Source: Anaerolineales bacterium
GTDB lineage: Bacteria; Chloroflexota; Anaerolineae; Anaerolineales; UBA11579
Length of the DNA stretch: 64,000 nucleotides
NCBI GenBank assembly: GCA_040902205.1
Contig: JBBDXR010000035.1
Span: 272 to 64,271, forward strand
Reading direction: 5' to 3'
Within the stretch, counting starts at the first letter, position 1. Each line of letters starts with the position of its first letter. The notes beneath the pieces are model-generated. The model saw only the letters and a program-made list of their open reading frames with translations, was not told the DNA's origin and made no database searches. Shown piece by piece: positions 3,681-42,453 of this stretch. A program made the position numbers and the translations under genes.

Positions 3681-3923
3681 ATGACCGGGCCGGGGTACGG
3701 GCCTAACCTCGTTAGCGCCACACAGAGCGAGCGGGGATTGGAGGTGCGCTGCCCTGCGTGCCAACATCAATTCGCCATTGGCAGGGAAAGCCTGGGCAAA
3801 GAGGTCGATTGCCCTCAAACGTATCAACTTAGGGCTTACGGCGGCGAAAAAGGGCTGATGCGCTGCGGGGCGAGATTGAAGGTCAGCCCTTGTGTGAAGG
3901 CCGCCGGCTTAACCGCCCTCTAG
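3681..3923 (+). CDS. Possible small zinc-ribbon protein
   Basis: CPAC...CPQ...CG motifs; fills the gap between two same-strand genes. Start is uncertain. Confidence 0.35.
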   Translation: MTGPGYGPNLVSATQSERGLEVRCPACQHQFAIGRESLGKEVDCPQTYQLRAYGGEKGLMRCGARLKVSPCVKAAGLTAL

Positions 3924-3929
3924 GGGTTC

Positions 3930-4556
3930 ATGGGCCTCGATTACAGCTATCTACTCTATTTCAAACGCGAGCGGCTCTGGGACGCGCTGCAGGGGCTGGC
4001 CGGCTTCACCAGGCCCAGCAAAAAGCAGACCGTAGTGGTCTTTCCCGATCACATTCTGCTGCTGCCTTTGGAGCCCTGGTATTCGGAGCACAGGATGGTG
4101 AAGTTCGATGCGCCGCAATTCCCGTTCACGATCAGCATCTATTTCCAGGAGGATGAGGCCATTAGGGAATACGTGATGCGCAACTTCCGTGAGCACTACG
4201 AAGAGATGTCCAAGGAGAGCCCGCTAGGGTTCCCCATCGGCATCATTTACTTGACGGTCTACCGTGATCTGCAGGCGTTCAACAAGGATTTCGATAACAC
4301 CGACTTGGTGTTGATGGAATTCGGTACGACCGGTACGCGCATGAGTCTGCTTTTCGCCGAATCCAGGTCCATCCGGAAGCGGTTCGAAGGACTATTGGAG
4401 GCGCACCAGGGGGTTTATGGAATCCTCAATTTGGAGGGACCGGCGAGATTGATCTGGTGCAGCGGGCACAGGGTGGATTACGAGTTGCCCGACGCGTTCA
4501 TGAAGCCCGAAGAAATCGGCAGCTACTTACTCCAGGCTTCATCCCCGCGGAGGTAA
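3930..4556 (+). CDS. Hypothetical protein (208 aa)
   Basis: Long ORF in operon-like spacing with the downstream glycosylase; no motif recognised. Confidence 0.75.
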   Translation: MGLDYSYLLYFKRERLWDALQGLAGFTRPSKKQTVVVFPDHILLLPLEPWYSEHRMVKFDAPQFPFTISIYFQEDEAIREYVMRNFREHYEEMSKESPLGFPIGIIYLTVYRDLQAFNKDFDNTDLVLMEFGTTGTRMSLLFAESRSIRKRFEGLLEAHQGVYGILNLEGPARLIWCSGHRVDYELPDAFMKPEEIGSYLLQASSPRR

Positions 4557-32772: not shown

Positions 32773-33558
32773 TCAATCAACCATGGCGAAAAGCAGAATC
32801 CCGGCCGCCACCGATAGATTTAGTGAATTAACCTTGCCCGACATTGGGATTCGCACGACTTGATCGCAGATGGAGAGTTGTTCTTTCGACAACCCATCTC
32901 TTTCGCTGCCAAGATACAGTACCGCTGGCCTTTGAGCCGCCATCTGGCGGAATTTGCTTCCGCTATCTGGAGAAGTCCCGATAGTATGTACTTTGTGCTG
33001 GGCATCCCAACTTCCAAATTCCGCAAAACTGCAATGCATGATCGGGTGGCAGAAATGCGCGCCCAATCCCGCGCGCACCGCGGTGGGATGGTAAGGATCA
33101 ACGCCCCCGTCCACCAGGATGAGCGCCTCGCCGCCCACGGCATCCAACGTGCGTAGAATGCTGCCCAGGTTGCCGGGGTCGGCAGGCTCCTGCAGCGCAA
33201 CAGAGATGGAGTTCGCGCTTGGAGCATATGCTGCGATTGCCGTAAGCCGCTGCTGAGCCACCGCCAGGGTGCCATGCGGATTCTCCTTGCTACCCAGTGA
33301 TTCAAAAATACCTCGGGTGGTCTGGAAGCAGGGAATTCCCGCTTGCGTGATGCGTCCGATCAGTTCTTTGGAAAAGGGAGTACTCAGCAGCTCGTCAGCA
33401 TAGACCACGAATTCGATCGAGGCTTTTTGGTCAAGAGCCAGACCTATATGGAAAGTGCCTTCAACGACGAAAAGGCCTGTTTCTTGCCGTTCTTTGCGCT
33501 GGCGCAGAGAACGGATCAGTTGGATGCGCGGATTGCGCTGGCTCGTGATGGATTCCAC
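32773..33558 (-). CDS. TrmH/SpoU family RNA methyltransferase
   Basis: ITSQRNPRI, DPGNLGSILRT, LGSERDGL, IPMSGKVNSLNLSVAAGI. Confidence 0.94.
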   Translation of the reverse strand: MESITSQRNPRIQLIRSLRQRKERQETGLFVVEGTFHIGLALDQKASIEFVVYADELLSTPFSKELIGRITQAGIPCFQTTRGIFESLGSKENPHGTLAVAQQRLTAIAAYAPSANSISVALQEPADPGNLGSILRTLDAVGGEALILVDGGVDPYHPTAVRAGLGAHFCHPIMHCSFAEFGSWDAQHKVHTIGTSPDSGSKFRQMAAQRPAVLYLGSERDGLSKEQLSICDQVVRIPMSGKVNSLNLSVAAGILLFAMVD

Positions 33559-33626
33559 AAGACCATTATAGGGGGCGAAGCCCTGCAGGGTTAGAATTAA
33601 CGACCGGTGGAAGAAAGGTGGTTGGA

Positions 33627-34025
33627 ATGTCCAATGAGCATGTAGTCACACTAATGAACAAGTATATGGACCTGAAGGCGCAGCTGGCCTCCATGGAAGC
33701 CGACAAGGAAAAACTGATCGATGAGGCGATGCCGAAAGAAGTTCGCCAAAGGATTGCCGAGATCGAGGATGAATTCGCCGGCAAGAACGAGAAAGCGCAG
33801 AAAGACTTGGGCGAATTGGAAGAGGCAGTTAAGATCGGCGTTGTAGGTCTGAAGCAGACCCTGGCGGTGAAAGGCCTCAAGGCCTCCTATCACCCCGGAC
33901 GGGTCACCTGGGATGCCAAGGGCTTGGAGGGAGTGGTCAAGGGTCATCCGGATCTTGCGCCCATTCTCCTCCCCCTCAAGAAACAGGGCAACGATTACGC
34001 ATCCTTTCGCTTCGATGAGAAATAA
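33627..34025 (+). CDS. Hypothetical coiled-coil protein
   Basis: Long helical N-terminus followed by KASYHPGRVTWD; own -10-like TAGAAT upstream. Start 33618 or 33627. Confidence 0.7.
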   Translation: MSNEHVVTLMNKYMDLKAQLASMEADKEKLIDEAMPKEVRQRIAEIEDEFAGKNEKAQKDLGELEEAVKIGVVGLKQTLAVKGLKASYHPGRVTWDAKGLEGVVKGHPDLAPILLPLKKQGNDYASFRFDEK

Positions 34026-34086
34026 GCCCGGGCAGTCTCGCCTTTCCTGATAGTTCCTGATAGGGGTCATGCGCCTTAATTAAGGC

Positions 34087-35388
34087 ATGACCGCAAGCTT
34101 TCCTCGGGATTCCGCCCGGATACCCGGTTTCTATAACTTGCCTCTGGCCCAACGCCAGGCGCGCCTGCGCGCCCTGGGCCTGGGCGCGGCCGAGGTGGCC
34201 GCCTTCGCTACCGGCGGCCTGACCGCCGAGTCCGCCGACCACATGATCGAAAACGTGGTCGGCACTTTCAACCTGCCGCTCGGCATCACCCTGAACTTCG
34301 TGGTCAATGGCCGCGAGGTGCTGATTCCGATGGTCATCGAAGAACCCTCAGTGGTGGCAGGTGCCTCTTTCATGGCCAAGTTGGCACGGCCGGGCGGCGG
34401 CTTCCGCGCTTCCGCCGATGCGCCCGAAATGATCGGCCAGATGCAATTGCTGGACGTGACCGATTTGGACAAGGCGGCCGCCGCCATCGAGAAGGCCAAA
34501 GCTCAATTGTTGGCCGAGGCCACCGGGATCGACCCCGTGCTGCAAAAGCTAGGCGGCGGACCGCGCGACCTTGAAGTTCGACGCATTGAAGAATCGCCTA
34601 TCGGTCCGTTCCTGGTCTTGCATCTGATCTACGACGTGCGCGACGCCATGGGCGCCAACGCGGTCAACACCGCCTGCGAACGCCTGGCGCCGAAGATCGA
34701 AGCGCTCACCGGTGGGCGCGTGCATTTGCGCATCTTGAGCAACCTGGCCGACCGGCGCTTGGCGCGCGCCGATTGCACCATCAACCTGAACGAACTTGCC
34801 TTCGGCGAGTTCAGCGCCGAAGCGGTACGTGATGGCATCATCGAGGCTTGGGCATTCGCCGCGGCTGACCCGTATCGCGCGGCCACCCACAACAAAGGCA
34901 TCATGAACGGCGTGGACGCGGTGGTCATCGCCACGGGCAACGACTGGCGCGCTGTGGAAGCCGGAGCCCACGCATTTGCATCGCGCTCCGGCCGCTACAC
35001 CTCTCTAAGCACCTGGAGTAAGGATACGGATGGCAACCTGGTTGGCGCTCTCGAGATGCCGATGGCGGTTGGCATTGTGGGCGGCGCCATCAAGGTTCAT
35101 CCCGCGGCCCAGGCTGCCCTTAAATTGATGGGCGTGAGCACTGCCGCCGACCTGGCGCAGATCATCGTTTCAGTCGGGCTAGCGCAGAACCTGGCAGCCC
35201 TGCGCGCCCTGGCCACCGAAGGCATCCAGCGCGGCCATATGAGCTTGCACGCCCGGCAAGTAGCCATCGCCGCCGGTGCTAAGGGCGCCGCGATCGATAA
35301 GCTGGCTGGCCAGCTGGTGAAAGAAAAGACCGTGCGCGTTGACCGCGCCGAGCAAATCTTGAAGGATTGGACCAATGGTAACCACTGA
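34087..35388 (+). CDS. mvaA: HMG-CoA reductase, class II
   Basis: [42 protein letters not shown]. Confidence 0.96.
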
Positions 35389-36460
35389 TCACGACCACGA
35401 ACACGCCCGTGTGCTAAAACCCGAGAATCCGGTCGGCATCGTGGGCTACGGCGCCTACGTGCCGCGCTATCGTTTGCCGGCGCGCGAAGTGGCGCGCATC
35501 TGGATGGACGGCACTGGCGGCCTGCCCATCGAGGAGAAGTCAGTGCCGGGGCTGGATGAGGACGTGGCCACCATGTCCATCGAGGCGGCGCGCAATGCGC
35601 TGGCCCGCGCCCAGATCAACCCGCGCGACTTGCGCGCCGTGTGGGTCGGCTCTGAGTCGCACCCGTATGCGGTCAAGCCCACCTCCACCATCGTGGCCGA
35701 AGCCATCGGCGCGGTGCCCAGCACGCAGGCCGCCGATTGGGAGTTCGCCTGCAAGGCGGGCACCGAGGCTATGGTGGCGGCCATGGGCTTCGTGGGTTCC
35801 AAGATGGCGCGCTACGCGCTGGCCATCGGCATGGACACTGCCCAGGGCCGCCCGGGCGACGCGCTGGAATACACCGCCGGGGCGGGCGGCGCCGCCTTCA
35901 TCATTGGCCCTGGAGCGGAGTCGCTGGCGGAGATCGAAAGCTCCTATTCGTTCGTTACTGACACGCCGGATTTCTGGCGCCGCCAGTATGCCAAGTATCC
36001 CGAGCACGGCCAGCGCTTCACCGGCGAGCCCGCCTATTTCAAGCACATCACCTCAGCCGGCGAGGCCATGTTCGAAGCCACCGGCACCAGGCCGGAAGAT
36101 TACGCTTACGCCGTCTTCCACCAACCCAACACCAAGTTCCCTCAACGCGCCGGCGCCATCCTGGGCTTCAAGCCGGAGCAGATGGCGACTGGCTTGCTGG
36201 TGCCGCGCATCGGCAACACCTACTCCGGCGCCGCCATCATTGGCCTCACCGCCATCCTGGATGTCGCCAAACCCGGCGAGCGCATCATGATGGTCTCCTT
36301 CGGCTCCGGCGCCGGGTCGGACGCCATGGTGTTGCGCGTCACGGACAAGATCGCCGGCAAGCCGGAGCTGGCCACCCAGACCGAAGAGTACATTGCCCGC
36401 CGCACGGAGATCGATTACGCCGAGTATGTGCGCATGCGAGGAAAGCTGACAATGAAGTAA
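35375..36460 (+). CDS. mvaS: HMG-CoA synthase, archaeal type
   Basis: [18 protein letters not shown] (catalytic Cys), FHQPN (catalytic His), [16 protein letters not shown]. Confidence 0.95.
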
Positions 36461-36494
36461 CTAGTAAGTAGTAATTACTATTTACTAATTACTG
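36456..36494. repeat. Back-to-back inverted 7-bp arrays (AGTAANT x3 / TTACTAN x3) between mvaS and the thiolase gene
   Basis: AGTAACT AGTAAGT AGTAATT ACTATTT ACTAATT ACTG; the mvaS TAA stop lies inside the first unit. Confidence 0.75.
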
Positions 36495-36510
36495 AACAGA
36501 TGAGGATCAC

Positions 36511-37671
36511 ATGACAAATGTAGTTATTGCTGGTATCGGCCAAACGCCCGTCAATGAACACTGGGAGATCTCGCTGCGCGAGCTGGCTTTCCAGGCCATG
36601 GAGGCCGCCATGCAGGATGCAGGCGGCTTGCGGCCCAATGCGCTTTACGTCGGCAACATGTTGGCTAGCGCCCTTTCACACCAGGCGCATCTTGGCGCCA
36701 TGCTGGCCGATTTCGCCGGCCTCACCGGCATCGAAGCCGCCACCATCGAGGCCGCCGGCGCCTCGGCAGCCATGGCGCTGCGCGTTGGTTATCTCGCCGT
36801 GGCCTCCGGCCTGGTAGACGCCGCCATGGTGCTGGGCGTCGAGAAGCTCAGCGACCAAGTACCCGCCCAGGTGGAGAGCGCCCTGGCCATGGGCAGCGAC
36901 ACAGATTACGAAGCCGAACAGGGGCTCACGCTCACCGCGCAAGCGGCCATGCTCGCCCAACGCTACATGCACGAATTCAAGGTTCCGGACCACGCCCTCG
37001 GCGGCTTCCCGCTCACCGCGCACGCCAATGGTGCCCACAATCCCAATGCCATGTTCCGCAAGGTGGTTAAGCCGGAGACCTACGCCAAGGCCGGCATGGT
37101 CAGCGCTCCGCTGAACATGTTCGATGTGGCTCCGAACGCAGACGGCGCGGCAGCGCTGCTGCTCACCCGCGCTGACCTGCTGCCACCGAAGTTTCCAAAT
37201 CCCCTGGTGGAGATCATTGGCTCCAGCGCGGCGACCGATACCTTGGCGCTGCACGACCGGCCCGATCCGCTTACCTTCAATGCGGCCAGATTATCCATCG
37301 AGCGCGCTTGCGCCCAGGCCGGGATCCTTCCCAAGGACGCGGATTTCTTCGAACTCTTCGATGCTTTCTCCATTTATGGTGCGCTTTCTATGGAAGCGGC
37401 CGGCTTCTCGCCAAAGGGCGAGGGCTGGAAGTGGGCGCAAAATGGCGCAATCAAGCTGGACGGTGAAATGCCCATCGCTACCCTTGGCGGCCTCAAGGCG
37501 CGCGGCTTCCCTGGCGGCGCCACCGGCGCCTACCAGGCCGTCGAAGCCGTGATCCAGTTGCGCGGTCAGGCGGGGGAAGCCCAGGTGAAGGGTGCAAAGA
37601 CCGCCCTGGTGCAAAGCCTGGGCGGCCCGGCCTCCACGGCGGTCACACACGTGTTGAGAACAATCAATTAG
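36511..37671 (+). CDS. Archaeal-type thiolase-fold protein lacking the canonical catalytic residues
   Basis: Thiolase pattern throughout (VVIAGIGQTP, LGVEKLSD, ADGAAA, GGLKARG.P.GATG), but EAAGASA, LFDAFS and RGFPGG replace EAACASG, HD.F and GHP. Confidence 0.9.
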   Translation: MTNVVIAGIGQTPVNEHWEISLRELAFQAMEAAMQDAGGLRPNALYVGNMLASALSHQAHLGAMLADFAGLTGIEAATIEAAGASAAMALRVGYLAVASGLVDAAMVLGVEKLSDQVPAQVESALAMGSDTDYEAEQGLTLTAQAAMLAQRYMHEFKVPDHALGGFPLTAHANGAHNPNAMFRKVVKPETYAKAGMVSAPLNMFDVAPNADGAAALLLTRADLLPPKFPNPLVEIIGSSAATDTLALHDRPDPLTFNAARLSIERACAQAGILPKDADFFELFDAFSIYGALSMEAAGFSPKGEGWKWAQNGAIKLDGEMPIATLGGLKARGFPGGATGAYQAVEAVIQLRGQAGEAQVKGAKTALVQSLGGPASTAVTHVLRTIN

Positions 37672-37699
37672 ATCGCGCTTTTTCATTACAATCCAGGAG

Positions 37700-39174
37700 A
37701 TGCAGAAGGATCAAATCCCATTCTGGGCAGGGTTAATTTCCTTGGCGGTCCTCGGTGTGATTGCGGTGGCCGTGGTGACGCGTTGGGGAGTTGGCCTCTT
37801 TGACCTGGACTCCTTCAACTACCTCGCATCGGCACGTAGCCTGGCTGTCGGGAACGGCTTGCAGGTGCCCGTCAGTCCTACCTCGCTTCGCCCGATGCTT
37901 TATTTCGCTCCTCTGCTTCCTGCCGTACTCTCTGTTTTTGAATTGGCTGGTGTCGATGCGATGGATGGCGCCCGCTGGTTCAACGCGGCCTTGTTTGGAG
38001 TGAACCTGCTGCTTTTTTCGGCCATTGCTTACGGTTTTTCGCGTTCCAAGGTCATCGCCCTGGCTGCTGCGTTCCTTTTTCTGTTCTCAGCGGATTTACT
38101 GGTAGCTCACTCTTGGGCGCTAAGTGAACCGTTGCTAATAACCTTCATGTTGGCCAGCCTTCTTGCCTTTCATATATGGGTGAAAAGAAGAGAATTCGTC
38201 TGGGTTTTGGTGTTGTGGGTCTGCGTCGCCTTGGCTGTGCTGACCAAGTTCGTGGCCGGAGCCTTAGTGCCTGTTTTTGTGCTTCTATTTTGGTCGACCA
38301 ATCTCTCTCGGCGAGACAAGCTCGTCTACTCAATGGGGACTTTGCTATCCGGTTTGATTCCATTTTTGTTTTGGTCATTGAGGAGTTATTTGTTATCGGC
38401 TTCGTTCCATGGTTTCAGTTTTGGCTATGTTCCCCTCGGACGAGGTAATCTGATTAGCGCGTTTTTACATTCTTTACGTGGGTTGTTCCCGAAGGCTGGC
38501 TATTCGGGCGCGAAACGCTATTTCTTGTTTTGGCCGTTTTGTGGGCCACCGGCGCGGGGGTTTATCTGGTGAATGGGATGAGAAAACTGGGATCTACCGC
38601 GTTGACGGTGCCTATCTTTGCCATCCTCCTTTTTGCTTCTTATATGGTCCTGGTCGTCTTCGCCAAGACCATGTTCGATCATGGTATCGGCCTCCAGGAC
38701 CGCATGCTTATCCCGCTATTCCCATTCCTACTGCTCGCGGTGGTTTTTATTGCCCATCGGCTATCAATAGAGGATCAGCGAGGAAAACTGCTAGCCATCG
38801 CAATTGTCGGCTATTTGGCCATTGTTTCCGTTATCGGCTCATTATCCACCTTGCCAACTGTGTACGAAGAAGGGTTGGGCTGGAATGCGCGCAACATCGT
38901 TACTTCACCGGCGATTGCGGAACTAAAGGTCATTGCCTCCTCTCCTGAGAATGTTCTGTTTAGCAACGAGACTTACGGAATGTACTTCCATACAAAACGG
39001 GTGGGTTATAACCTGAATAGCTTCCCACCAGCCGAGACTGCAGATCCCGTATATTTGGTCTTATTCAAGGTCCAACGCAACGATCCGCATCCCTTGCCCG
39101 CCAGATACACGGATGAGCTGAAGTTGATCATTGAGGATAATGTCCTCTCTATCTACTTGTTTATTCCTAAGTAG
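37700..39174 (+). pseudogene. ArnT/PMT (GT-C, GT39-like) membrane glycosyltransferase split by a frameshift
   Basis: DSFNYLASARSLAVG, FAPLLP, SEPL, LTKF motifs. ORFs 37700-38572 and 38530-39174 join if one T is added to the T5 run at 38462-38466 (AFFTFFTWVVPEGWLF). Confidence 0.8.
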
Positions 39175-39201
39175 TCTGATAGATACCGGGGAATACTGAA
39201 T

Positions 39202-39351
39202 CCACCGGGGTGCCTACCAGGCCGTCGAAGCTGTGCTCCAGCTGCGTGGCCAGGCGGGCGAGGCCAGGTGAAGGGTGCAAAGACCGCCCTGGTGCAAAGC
39301 CTGGGCGGCCCGGCCTCGACGGCTGTGACGCATGTGCTGCGCGTGACCTAG
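39202..39351 (+). pseudogene. Second, divergent copy of the thiolase 3' end (direct repeat of 37520-37671)
   Basis: Encodes ...AYQAVEAVLQLRGQAG/QVKGAKTALVQSLGGPASTAVTHVLRVT*. 54 bp are identical (39264-39317 = 37581-37634); synonymous changes and small indels elsewhere. Confidence 0.92.
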
Positions 39352-39450
39352 GTCATCTGTCACGTGAACTAATAGTCGAACAGCCCTATTTTCCCAACGG
39401 TGAACGCATAGGCTATCCAAGTTGACTTTCGTAAACCATTGGGAGGAAGT

Positions 39451-40143
39451 ATGGAAAAGCAGGTTTCGGTTAATAAGATCCCGCGCCCCTACACGTTATT
39501 AGTAATTCTTGTATTACTCGTATTCTGTTTCCTTTTTTTGCTCACAGATAACACCTACTACCGTTTTGCCAGTTCGATATTTCCTGTAATCGACAATTCC
39601 TCATGGTTGGCAACTCTGTGGGGCTTGTTCTCGCGACTGCACTTGTTATTGATCATTATTCCCCTTGTGGTTTGGCGGCCAAGATTATTCGGATTCCAAA
39701 TTGGGAAGATCTATCGACATTGGCGCACGCTGCTTGTGTTCCTGATATTGAATTGCGGCATCGTTGCCGCGTATTTCTTGATTACTGGAAGTTCCTCCCC
39801 TTACAGTGGGAACCAATGGTTTTTTAGCGAAGTCGTCACTGTCCCCATAGTCGAAGAGATTTTTTGGCGCGGATTGGTTTTTGCAGCCTTGTTGGCTATT
39901 TTTCGAAGAATGTACGATGAAAACGCCAGCGCACATCTTTCGGTATGGTCCAGTGGAGTCGCCTTTGGGCTTTTACATGCGGGGAATGCCTTGGCGGGAG
40001 TCCCTTTGGCTTTCGTCGCCATACAGACGCTTAGCGCAGTAATTTGGGGTGTGCTTTACGGGTATGCTCGCGCGAAAACCGATAGCATTTATCCTGCCAT
40101 GTTTTTGCATGCGGCCATGAATTTGGTAGTTGTCCTGTTCTAG
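39451..40143 (+). CDS. CPBP (Abi/CAAX-like) intramembrane metalloprotease
   Basis: PIVEEIFWRG, FGLLH, HAAMN motifs; GGAGG RBS; low GC. Confidence 0.9.
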   Translation: MEKQVSVNKIPRPYTLLVILVLLVFCFLFLLTDNTYYRFASSIFPVIDNSSWLATLWGLFSRLHLLLIIIPLVVWRPRLFGFQIGKIYRHWRTLLVFLILNCGIVAAYFLITGSSSPYSGNQWFFSEVVTVPIVEEIFWRGLVFAALLAIFRRMYDENASAHLSVWSSGVAFGLLHAGNALAGVPLAFVAIQTLSAVIWGVLYGYARAKTDSIYPAMFLHAAMNLVVVLF

Positions 40144-40221
40144 TAGATTAATAATACTAACCAGACCTGATAGCTTTTGATAGTCTCCGCCGATTAAAGT
40201 CTAGGCTGATAAGGAGCAGCC

Positions 40222-40629
40222 GTGGATATCCCGCGCCATTGGAGACTAAACAAGCAGCGCTACGCCCTGGTGGGTGAAGTCTGTGAGCAGTGCAATGCCA
40301 AGCTCTTCCCGCCCCGTGACATCTGCCCGGAATGCGGCGAGGAAGCCAAGACCTTGTTCCAGTTCAGCGGCAAGGGCGAGGTGTATTCCTACACCACCGT
40401 CTACGAAGCGCCCGAAGGTTATGCCGAACAGGCGCCATACACACTGGCCATGGTCAAGTTGAGCGAAGGCCCCTTGGTCACCGCTCAGCTCACCGACCTC
40501 GGCGCCCAGAAGCCGGCCATCGGTATGCCCGTCGAGATGGTCACCCGTTTGCTGCGCTCCGCCACCGACGAGCGCGGCATGCTAATCTACGGGTACAAGT
40601 TCCGGCCAGCGGTAGCGCAAGCCGCGTAG
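40222..40629 (+). CDS. DUF35-type Zn-ribbon/OB-fold protein (thiolase/HMGS scaffold family)
   Basis: CEQC...CPEC, GKGEVYSYT, PY.LAMVKL.EGP.VTAQLTD, IGMPVE.V.R, YGYKFRP. Confidence 0.92.
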   Translation: MDIPRHWRLNKQRYALVGEVCEQCNAKLFPPRDICPECGEEAKTLFQFSGKGEVYSYTTVYEAPEGYAEQAPYTLAMVKLSEGPLVTAQLTDLGAQKPAIGMPVEMVTRLLRSATDERGMLIYGYKFRPAVAQAA

Positions 40630-40717
40630 GCATTACTTATTCAGAACCAAAATTGCCCCCTTCCATGGGCAATTTTGCTTTAAGCGGCAGAGTGCCAACC
40701 TGGGCTAAAATGCAATC

Positions 40718-41075
40718 GTGCTCCGCATCGGCTCTATCGTATTTCGTGTCAAAGACCTTAAGCGGCAGGAGGAATTCTGGATGGCAGCCCTCGGTTACGT
40801 GCCGCGCGAGCAAACACGGAATTATGATTTCATCGTGTTGTCTCCAAGAGATGGCGAAGGCCCGAACATATCGCTCGACCAGCATCATTCCTCGGACAAT
40901 ATTCCCCCGCGCATCCATCTAGACCTGTACACGGAGGATCAAGCGGGCGAAGTTGCTCGCCTTAAGGCGCTAGGCGCCACCGAAGTGCACTGGTCCAAGC
41001 GGCCAACGGGATGCTGATTACTTCATCATGGCCGACCCGGAAGGTAATCGCTTCTGTGTGGTGGACGCAAGCTAG
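40718..41075 (+). pseudogene. VOC/glyoxalase-family gene with a +1 frameshift
   Basis: IGSIVFRVKDL..FW..ALGY, RIHLDLY, RLKALGA. Removing one G at 41008-41010 gives the expected C-terminus DADYFIMADPEGNRFCVVDAS*. Confidence 0.8.
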
Positions 41076-41208
41076 GGAGCCAGCCCGAAAATAGATAGAG
41101 CACCGAGCCCATTGGGACTCTAATGTCTGCTGATTGGGTTTTGCCGTAGAATATAGCCTTACGATTTAGTCAGGCGGGATTCGCCAGAATCCGCCGATAG
41201 GAGAGACC

Positions 41209-42453
41209 ATGGTCTCTTTTCGCCAGAAGGCCTTTGGCCGACGCTTAACCAGCCTTATTTCTTCAGTCCTGATCTGCTCCATTTTGCTGGCTGCCATGCC
41301 GGCTGGTGTCGCCTTTGCCGGTGAGTGTGATGGCACGGCTGGAGATGATGACGGTATTTCAAACCCTGCTGTGGTTTGCTCCGCCGATCCCGCTACTCCG
41401 GATGCCGATGTTGGCTTGGACTTTGGTAATGACACTTATGTTCAGGATACCGGTGTCACCTCGGATTCTGTCGGCGGCGACGCTTTGGATGATGGCACTA
41501 GCAACACCGGCGACGGCGGAGCTGACAACATTACGATCAATGGCACCGTGACTGGCTGCGTCGATGGCGACAACACGGATGGAGATGGTGGCAACGATGT
41601 AATAACAGTCAATGGGACCGTGGTTTGCAGCGTCAATGGCGACTATGCGAGTGGTTCCGGCGGCGACGATTCCATAACCATAAACGGGGAAGTCGGCGGC
41701 ATCATTGGCGACTATGCAGGCGATGATGGCGGGGACGACCAGATCAGGGTCAATTCCGGCGGCTTGGTCGGCATCGGGATCCTCGGGGACGGCATTCTGG
41801 GTTTCGGCAACGGCGGGAATGACACGATCGTTATCTTGGGCGACGTCCTTGGATCGGTCAGTGGAGATGATACAACTTTCGGTGATGGCGGCGATGATGC
41901 TATTTTCGTTTATGGATCTGTCGCGGGTGACATCTATGGCGACGATGCAGGCGGCGCGGGTGGTAACGACTCAGTTACTCTGGGAGCGGGTGCCATCGTC
42001 GGAGGGCTCATCGATGGCGAGGATGGGTACGACACGCTCACTTTCGAATTCCTGGCACAGAGCCAACTATTGGGCTTAGACCCGGTTGGCGGAGCGTTTA
42101 CCTACCAGGGACAAACTTACACGTGGGCCAACTTTGAAGAACTGATCGGTCTGTTTGAGGAACTCGGCGTCAGTTTCCGCGTGGTCTATTCGAATGGATC
42201 GTTGCGCGCAGTCGACCAGCTCTTTGGCATTTCCGTGTTCGCCGAGCACGGGCGCATCGCCTTCATTTCATTCGATTCGCTGGACATGGCTGTCGGCGGC
42301 TCGCGAACCTACAACACACCGAACAGCGCGGGCTGGTATGTCACCGTCACCAATCTGGGCGCCAACCCCAACAACTCCAGCAATGACCTCTTCCAGGTGA
42401 CCATCTTCGACGCCGCCGGCGGGCAGCAGGGGCGGTTCACCTTTTCGAATTAG
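41209..42453 (+). CDS. Secreted Gly/Asp-rich protein with about 7 RTX-like/beta-helix repeats
   Basis: Signal peptide ending AFA; repeats GG(A/N/D)D.I.(I/V).G.V.G.(V/I).GD. Confidence 0.82.
   Translation: MVSFRQKAFGRRLTSLISSVLICSILLAAMPAGVAFAGECDGTAGDDDGISNPAVVCSADPATPDADVGLDFGNDTYVQDTGVTSDSVGGDALDDGTSNTGDGGADNITINGTVTGCVDGDNTDGDGGNDVITVNGTVVCSVNGDYASGSGGDDSITINGEVGGIIGDYAGDDGGDDQIRVNSGGLVGIGILGDGILGFGNGGNDTIVILGDVLGSVSGDDTTFGDGGDDAIFVYGSVAGDIYGDDAGGAGGNDSVTLGAGAIVGGLIDGEDGYDTLTFEFLAQSQLLGLDPVGGAFTYQGQTYTWANFEELIGLFEELGVSFRVVYSNGSLRAVDQLFGISVFAEHGRIAFISFDSLDMAVGGSRTYNTPNSAGWYVTVTNLGANPNNSSNDLFQVTIFDAAGGQQGRFTFSN

Follow-up and report, generated by a model that had tools for sequence, protein, structure and literature searches.

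The window examined here is a stretch of 64,000 nucleotides (nt), contig C35, from the genome of an Anaerolineales bacterium of the phylum Chloroflexota (JBBDXR010000035.1, positions 272 to 64,271), a metagenome-assembled genome (MAG) of 2.46 Mb in 38 contigs that we refer to as G000. Within an archaeal-type mevalonate cluster in this window, a glycosyltransferase (GT) gene lies between two diverged copies of the 3' end of thl, the gene for an archaeal-type thiolase, in a slot that is bounded on its right by a gene of the DUF35 family. The arrangement is probably the scar of a 3'-end displacement, made by host recombination at a hotspot free of mobile elements, in which two alternative versions of the slot would have been joined head to tail. 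Scars of this type have been described at toxin loci of bacteria, and the case is instructive without involving a new mechanism. The features that carry the argument are the following (lengths of proteins are in amino acids, aa).

36511-37671, plus strand: thl, intact archaeal-type thiolase gene, 386 aa, ending in VTHVLRTIN-stop (Pfam Thiolase_C_1 and Thiolase_N)
37520-37671, plus strand: copy A, the in-use 3' end of thl (repeat search and pairwise alignment)
37581-37634, plus strand: core of copy A, 54 nt, identical to the core of copy B (alignment)
37700-39174, plus strand: GT, a GT-C (PMT-like, ArnT-like) glycosyltransferase gene in two frames, 37700-38572 and 38530-39174 (Pfam PF02366 and PF13231)
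39175-39201, plus strand: partial second copy of the native pre-DUF35 spacer (TCTGATAGATACCGGGGAATACTGAAT), ending at the joint 39201/39202 (comparison with the spacers of G008, G010, L129 and L130)
39202-39351, plus strand: copy B, displaced thl 3'-end fragment from about codon 339 to the stop, ending in VLRVT-stop (repeat search and pairwise alignment)
39264-39317, plus strand: core of copy B, 54 nt (alignment)
39451-40143, plus strand: gene for a CPBP / Rce1-like intramembrane protease, low in G+C, the second cargo of the slot (Pfam PF02517)
40168-40183, plus strand: TGATAGCTTTTGATAG, native spacer motif about 40 nt upstream of DUF35 and right border of the slot (conserved across the order)
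40222-40629, plus strand: DUF35 gene (ChsH2-like zinc-ribbon plus OB-fold) with a GTG start, the right conserved flank of the slot (Pfam PF01796 and PF12172)

Two diverged thiolase ends share an identical core

Copies A and B start 1683-1684 nt apart and are about 88% identical by pairwise alignment, and the genome contains neither a further copy of this repeat nor an alternative contig with a thiolase end. An earlier note on this DNA, made from the sequence alone, had described direct repeats of about 150 bp around a low-GC GT-C gene, with an identical central 54 bp, flanks that differ mostly at synonymous sites, and a downstream copy that is truncated with indels and ends in VLRVT where the in-use copy ends in VLRTIN; all of these points are borne out by the repeat search and the alignment and, for the gene between the repeats, by matches to the Pfam families PMT and PMT_2. 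To the left of the core there are 8 differences in 54 nt together with two indels in copy B: a GGGG run next to the joint has an indel of 2 nt, and a CCC run bordering the core has one of 1 nt. Copy B is not translatable as thiolase. To the right there are 6 differences in 22 nt, after which the two tails are unrelated. The flanks of the core differ by 15-27%, and nearly all of this difference is synonymous: up to VTHVLR, 13 of the 14 differing codons encode the same residue, the exception being an exchange of Ile and Leu. Because the codon differences are synonymous to this extent, copy B is the end of a different, once-working thiolase allele from another lineage, and not a decayed local duplicate, and its reduction to a fragment is recent. 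The proposal that the second copy came from a relative is upheld in the sense that the two copies represent two diverged relatives, as the synonymous-only pattern indicates.

The identity of the cores is non-random. When 14 differences are placed at random, an identical run of at least 53 nt is obtained with P = 0.005, and when sites are weighted by their variability between species, about 43% of which falls inside the core, the probability of the same run is P = 0.004. The core differs by at least 5 nt from that of each of 24 relatives, such that copies A and B share derived bases there (GGT GCA). The 54-nt identity is thereby supported as a real mark of recombination, beyond what chance would be expected to leave, and the block in copy A is presumed to be the site of a homologous exchange or gene conversion.

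Two alternative alleles of the slot, probably in tandem

The GT stop codon is followed by 27 nt (39175-39201) that are similar to the native spacer in front of DUF35, and the GT-bearing piece therefore once ran on into DUF35. The piece breaks off at an illegitimate joint, 39201/39202, that has no long word in common with anything else, which is why the joint must exist in a real molecule. Each of the two parental arrangements occurs alone in other lineages. The order thl-GT-spacer-DUF35 is present in four (G008, G010, L129 and L130), with thl-GT also seen in L131, the contig of which stops inside the GT gene; the order thl-CPBP-spacer-DUF35 is present in contig L133, which also contains the best homologue of the CPBP gene (70% identical), more distant CPBP homologues being located at other places in their genomes. 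Since spacer-like sequence stands behind GT and both arrangements exist separately, the slot would appear to be two alleles in tandem, one consisting of thl end A, GT and the start of a spacer, and the other of thl end B from about codon 339, CPBP, the spacer and DUF35. The G+C content is 0.60-0.70 in the mevalonate cluster, 0.46-0.53 in GT and 0.41-0.52 in CPBP, and the thl fragment forms an island of 0.64 between the two cargo genes.

An exact look-up of the CPBP sequence identified a Logan contig, L132 (965 nt, SRR27977660), that is identical to positions 39288-40252. It begins with the first 31-mer that is specific to copy B (39288) and ends with the last 31-mer that includes the GTG start of DUF35. 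Both ends are graph branch points, which shows that both continuations of the core, as well as related genomes, are present in the SRR27977660 sample; the contig fits the repeat without phasing it.

The glycosyltransferase is an apparently old occupant

The match of GT to PF02366 scores 38.9 bits against a cut-off of 22.7, and its intact homologues are proteins of 494-499 aa with PF02366 or PF13231. When compared with the intact 498-aa protein of G008, GT is seen to be broken by a 1-nt shift at a T run (38462-38466), which the earlier note overlooked; the split reflects either genuine decay or homopolymer errors. The homologue in G010 is also split, at another place, and those of G008, L129 and L130 are intact.

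A search among 5.8 billion proteins placed the close homologues of GT in one clade (support 100/100), and every member of the clade with visible neighbours sits directly behind thl. Because the slot GTs are 46-58% identical to one another while the thiolases beside them are 77-89% identical, GT appears to be an old and fast-evolving occupant of the slot, with no recent import from any sampled lineage. The idea that GT moves as a self-contained cassette has to be given up, since five other lineages carry the gene with no flanking repeats around it.

Slot contents across relatives

About 30 loci entered the comparison of the slot, drawn from 20 species belonging to the genus, from an outgroup genus and from metagenome contigs. 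Conserved core genes flank the slot, their order matches that of the relatives, and amino acid identities across the genus are 83-92% for thl and 91-95% for DUF35. The gap between the thl stop and the DUF35 start is 50-52 nt, and the slot is empty, in G004, the closest relative (92% aa identity in thl), and in G015. The outgroup genus has a gap of 67 nt; for the order's remaining genera, in most of which the slot counts as empty, 70-310 nt is the usual length. Besides these empty sites, at least nine cargo states were recognized, in keeping with the variable slot that the earlier note had suspected and for which it had proposed such a survey. The cargo consists of a DinB-like gene of 144 aa; the DinB-like gene with an M24 peptidase; a 260-aa protein with the DinB-like gene and M24; M24 without the other two, next to a relic of the start of the 260-aa gene; an 87-aa protein; GT; CPBP; a GmrSD-like nuclease (DUF262 plus HNH) of low G+C; in G002, a second kind of GT-C together with a membrane protein; and non-coding fills. 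The open reading frames (ORFs) in the slots match PMT, Rce1-like, DinB (weakly), M24 or GmrSD_N plus HNH families in Pfam, or none. The last 2-7 codons of thl vary with the cargo, and the borders of the cargo vary between genomes.

No integrase, transposase or phage genes are found in the slots, and no recombinase is encoded among the ORFs between 33000 and 43000 of the window or in the syntenic loci, so that the description of the event as integrase-free also stands. By comparison of identities, the nearest relative changes along thl, and in the glyoxalase gene downstream G019 is a nearer match than G004.

Two individual slots deserve separate mention. That of G022 (L025) holds one gene, encoding a 423-aa protein with GmrSD_N and HNH domains at a G+C content of 0.39, which resembles a type IV restriction defence gene; because of it, we count defence genes among the cargo of the hotspot. 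That of G009 (L029) is 287 nt long and gene-less, and its first 130 nt are made up of about three tandem copies of a unit of about 45 nt (GTCATTGCGAG...AATCCCCAAGCCAAT).

Thiolase-end remnants in other genomes

A sensitive search recovered thl-end remnants, independent of one another, in three of 28 occupied slots, those of G000, G002 and L129. The remnant in G000 extends from about codon 339 to the stop and that in G002 comprises the last 26 codons, whereas L129 retains two pieces, about 80-68 and 44-33 codons before the stop, with the end itself absent. As the three remnants have differing borders, a site-specific enzyme is disfavoured as their source.

The G002 slot (L038/L068) begins with the 260-aa gene and a truncated DinB-like gene, which are followed by the last 26 codons of a foreign thl, by a different GT-C gene on the minus strand (GT2), and then by the gene for a 284-aa membrane protein, a full second DinB-like gene and the M24 peptidase. 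The sister species have the order thl-260-DinB-M24-DUF35. Identity of G002 to them is 84-97% on the left and about 80% in the second DinB-like gene and M24, and it rises to 90-96% exactly from the spacer/DUF35 border, a profile that points to a homologous crossover at one end and an illegitimate joint at the other. In L129 (JGI 3300019790), the interval 3711-4000 between thl and GT is occupied by a 46-aa zinc-ribbon-like ORF (CxxH...CPHC) and by a degraded thl piece with an internal deletion.

Origin of the displaced end

DNA from a diverged relative and the functions of the host would suffice to join two alternative slot versions head to tail. One illegitimate joint, at 39201/39202, would have cut allele B at about codon 339, and one homologous interaction would have taken place inside the conserved 3' end of thl, leaving the 54-nt identical block as its trace. 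Three routes fit this outline. In route (a), a small circle composed of a thl 3' piece and cargo would integrate by a single crossover in the core and push the older thl end and its cargo downstream. In route (b), homology-facilitated illegitimate recombination (HFIR) of a linear fragment anchored in thl would introduce GT as the newcomer, and a short gene conversion would follow later. In route (c), HFIR would be anchored on the DUF35 side, with CPBP and the thl fragment as the newcomer and GT as the resident, again with a short gene conversion at a later time. Only in route (a) does the event itself place a point of exchange within the repeat, and even then the 26 variable bases of the core would still have to be homogenized by heteroduplex repair. 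We regard it as the single most likely path, although its probability stays short of even; routes (b) and (c) taken jointly carry about the same weight.

Some of the mechanistic proposals made earlier survive in part. Integration of a circle by a single crossover, as the earlier note had it, retains a real mark of recombination in the core, but it is only one of the three fitting routes. As for the capture of GT, the GT clade is confined to the slot and the gene may be its old resident, in which case CPBP and the thl fragment would have come later. Excision by the reverse reaction is plausible, in that RecA-type recombination between the two 54-nt cores would delete GT precisely and leave an intact hybrid thiolase gene whichever route had been taken.

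Several points weigh against a displacement scar as we have described it, or against parts of it. The exact repeat is 54 nt long, the k-1 length of an assembler that works with k = 55, and the sample in which L132 was found holds co-resident relatives, given that this contig ends on branch points. Both indels of copy B and the GT frameshift lie at homopolymer runs and could be sequencing errors. In itself, a reciprocal crossover yields 54 nt of identity only where the sequences of donor and host were the same beforehand or were homogenized by heteroduplex repair, and every route needs an extra assumption to account for this identity. Neither a near-identical donor nor a pre-insertion strain was found, all relatives being at least 10% divergent in DNA; an exact search of JGI metagenome contigs with a 34-nt core segment specific to G000 gave 0 hits, and exact-product look-ups for the thiolase, DUF35 and HMG-CoA synthase proteins returned no record. 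A recent donor of GT was likewise not found in the sampled lineages, the nearest among the 5.8 billion proteins being 58% identical in amino acids, and to speak of a capture of GT may be the wrong way round. The halves of each copy were compared with the 24 relatives, as had been envisaged earlier, but neither their distances nor the sliding identity along thl separates host from donor; with no relative closer than about 10% in DNA, the assignment has no usable signal.

If the polarity is reversed, GT becomes the old resident and the newcomer a linear fragment from a thl-CPBP-DUF35 lineage, its left end falling by chance within the 3' end of thl, that entered by HFIR, with a homologous anchor on the spacer/DUF35 side, the illegitimate joint 27 nt behind GT, and the 54-nt identity produced by a later gene conversion. 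We consider this possible but rather unlikely. The confinement of the GT clade to the slot, wherever neighbours are visible, and the 46-58% mutual identity of its members are what an old resident would display; G002 exhibits the same geometry, with its right crossover at the spacer/DUF35 border and its thl remnant at the left end of the divergent block; the required thl-CPBP-DUF35 allele exists in L133; and HFIR has been established experimentally (PMC3240628, PMC5361080). What counts against the reversed polarity is the separate gene conversion needed for an exact core with shared derived bases, for which 150-nt repeats that are 12% diverged offer a conserved starting block of only 27 nt, and the empty slot of the closest relative, G004, which makes GT no more than a putative resident in this lineage. 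An assembly or strain-mixture artefact, in which a chromosome with a hybrid thl end and CPBP and a separate or variant GT molecule were threaded together through the 54-mer, is improbable. The fragmented state of the MAG, with its 38 contigs, would allow it, as would the k-1 length of the repeat, the breaks of L132, which fall precisely where the core ends and on the DUF35 GTG start (branch points in a sample with co-resident related genomes), and the lack of any large GT fragment of high identity in public assemblies of SRR27977660. Nevertheless, the junction of the GT 3' flank with the thl fragment has no shared k-mer and so belongs to a real molecule, reads of 150 nt span a 54-nt repeat and standard assemblers phase such repeats, analogous remnants occur in two other genomes from other studies, and no other contig of the genome carries an alternative thiolase end.

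Still less probable is a site-specific cassette, in which a recombinase with its gene at another place would recognize the core as an att-like site, and a mobilizable GT unit would regenerate the thl end. An identical core with diverged arms and a regenerated 3' end of the target do recall islands in tRNA genes or guaA, yet the slot and its vicinity lack a recombinase throughout the ORFs and syntenic loci covered above, GT stands without flanking repeats in five other lineages, cargo borders vary by genome, the three remnants begin and end at different thl positions, and the core amounts to nothing more than the best-conserved part of the gene end with 26 nt added. Integrons and att-site cassettes were rejected as candidates in view of the missing recombinase and the non-conserved ends. 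A local tandem duplication of the thl end with GT, followed by decay of the downstream copy, is scarcely credible even though microhomology-mediated tandem duplications are common and copy B contains two indels. An unconstrained copy would gain mostly non-synonymous changes, and 13 of the 14 codon differences are synonymous; in addition, the tails and the downstream genes differ, and the A-type and B-type arrangements are found separately in other lineages. The pattern of synonymous substitution thus rules out duplication in situ with subsequent decay.

Relation to known systems

The closest parallels to the displaced thiolase end are the displacement arrays of rhs, cdiA and type VI secretion system (T6SS) loci, where an intact gene is likewise followed by a detached fragment of its own 3' end with another tail and cargo, fragments keep varying conserved lengths, no integrase is present, and the retained homology permits later deletion. 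The same two routes have been proposed there, a circle with a single crossover and homology-anchored illegitimate recombination: a circular intermediate was put forward for C-terminal displacement at rhs loci (Jackson et al. 2009, PMC2935791), and displacement of the HFIR type for Vibrio T6SS arrays (Kirchberger et al. 2017, PMC5361080). In contrast to those systems, the gene displaced here is a housekeeping thiolase of the mevalonate pathway and not a polymorphic toxin, its variable tip is 2-7 codons long, the cargo comprises accessory metabolic, envelope and defence genes with no immunity genes, and there is one fragment and no array. A toxin tip with its cognate immunity gene is thus not what the slot contains, the gene being a thiolase and the cargo a GT-C glycosyltransferase and a CPBP protease.

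Oliveira et al. (2017, PMC5635113) describe hotspots free of mobile genetic elements that are driven by recombination in the core genes on either side, and the thl-DUF35 interval resembles them in its variable content between two core genes and its lack of mobility genes; the identity of its flanks may also be mosaic, as homologous recombination would leave it. The model of that study invokes clean double crossovers that leave no scar, whereas here there is one illegitimate joint, the old and the new contents are both kept, and a scar is left; moreover, the study compares strains of one species, and our comparison extends over species of one genus of uncultured Chloroflexota. HFIR is known from natural transformation (de Vries & Wackernagel 2002 and Prudhomme et al. 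2002, as cited in PMC5361080; PMC3240628) and likewise combines one homologous anchor with one illegitimate joint and places foreign DNA beside a conserved gene without a recombinase. The evidence for it comes from laboratory selections, the organism studied here is not known to be competent, and HFIR alone does not explain the 54-nt identical core.

Islands in tRNA genes or guaA share with the slot a duplicated 3' end of the target, an identical core and an in-use end that derives from the incoming DNA; here, unlike there, an integrase is lacking, the ends of the element change from one genome to another and the borders of the fragments vary. Insertion with long target duplication, reportedly described by Furuta, Abe and Kobayashi in 2010, is said to leave repeats that are the recipient's own target and identical at birth. 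The likeness extends to the lack of a transposase and to an insert of a few genes that is bracketed by direct repeats with a length of at least about 100 bp, but the slot differs in that its two copies are diverged alleles that differ at synonymous sites and in their tails.

The case extends the pattern of C-terminal displacement from toxin loci to a housekeeping gene of the isoprenoid pathway in uncultured Chloroflexota, and it provides a clean example, dated by sequence, of gene gain beside a conserved gene without obvious mobile elements, with the displaced end as the scar. It also maps a small hotspot with a cargo that includes envelope enzymes and a GmrSD-type defence nuclease. For annotation, fragments of this kind should not be labelled as remains of a second thiolase gene that has become a pseudogene, and strain-specific genes can usefully be sought in the slot.

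A more far-reaching view, which we regard as doubtful, is that the thl-DUF35 junction is a standing exchange site that works without a recombinase, the thl 3' block and the TGATAG spacer serving as homology handles. If that were so, cargo would leave together with a piece of the gene end as small circles and re-enter relatives, the 54-nt core would still be active, and members of the population would gain and lose GT. Since polyprenyl-phosphate sugars are what GT-C enzymes use, the slot would also couple the switching of surface glycosylation to the lipid-carrier pathway.

The mevalonate cluster and the border of the slot

The ORFs and Pfam matches of the window define a mevalonate cluster composed of HMG-CoA reductase, HMG-CoA synthase, thl, the slot genes and DUF35. 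Its upstream features are as follows.

34048-34063, plus strand: TGATAGTTCCTGATAG, direct-repeat motif that precedes the HMG-CoA reductase start by about 24 nt (motif count)
34087-35388, plus strand: HMG-CoA reductase (Pfam PF00368, PF08541 and PF01154 cover the reductase/synthase pair; order the same in relatives)
35375-36460, plus strand: HMG-CoA synthase (HMGS; the same Pfam families for the pair; order the same in relatives)

The motif TGATAG-N4-TGA(T/G)AG is present in two copies in the window, with 0 expected in shuffles. On the DUF35 side the element lies 45-65 nt in front of the gene, with a ATAGAATTA-like or CTACAGTA-like box behind it, and is always the right border of the slot. An Rfam scan of 33000-41500 gave no match; a scan for sigma-70 promoters and terminators gave nothing above shuffle level. 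The TGATAG element does not form a canonical -35/-10 pair and is probably an operator or promoter common to the genes of a mevalonate regulon. We infer that DUF35 forms its own transcription unit and that the slot lies at the boundary of two co-regulated units, where insertions would do no polar harm; it is the presence of the same element in front of both HMG-CoA reductase and DUF35 that makes the slot look like a tolerant boundary of this kind. Its placement in an essential operon by the earlier note is therefore not sustained, the slot being situated between the thl stop and TGATAG-N4-TGAKAG, at what looks like the boundary of two transcription units.

Three minor observations concern the flanks of the slot. 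The start codon of DUF35 at 40222 is GTG in the window, and the same codon is ATG in all relatives examined. The first 100 nt of thl (36511-36610) are 75% identical to G004 and 87% identical to G020, G017 and L130, whereas the remainder of the gene is nearest to G004; this switch of identity hints at a possible second recombination breakpoint near a palindrome in the intergenic region between HMGS and thl. Finally, runs of a 7-nt unit stand directly in front of the TGATAG spacer in the slots of G021, G007, G019 and G009, the heptamers being AGCTAAC AGCTATT GGCTAAT AGCTGTT AGCTATT in G021 and the units GCTTAnA / CTGAnnG in G009.

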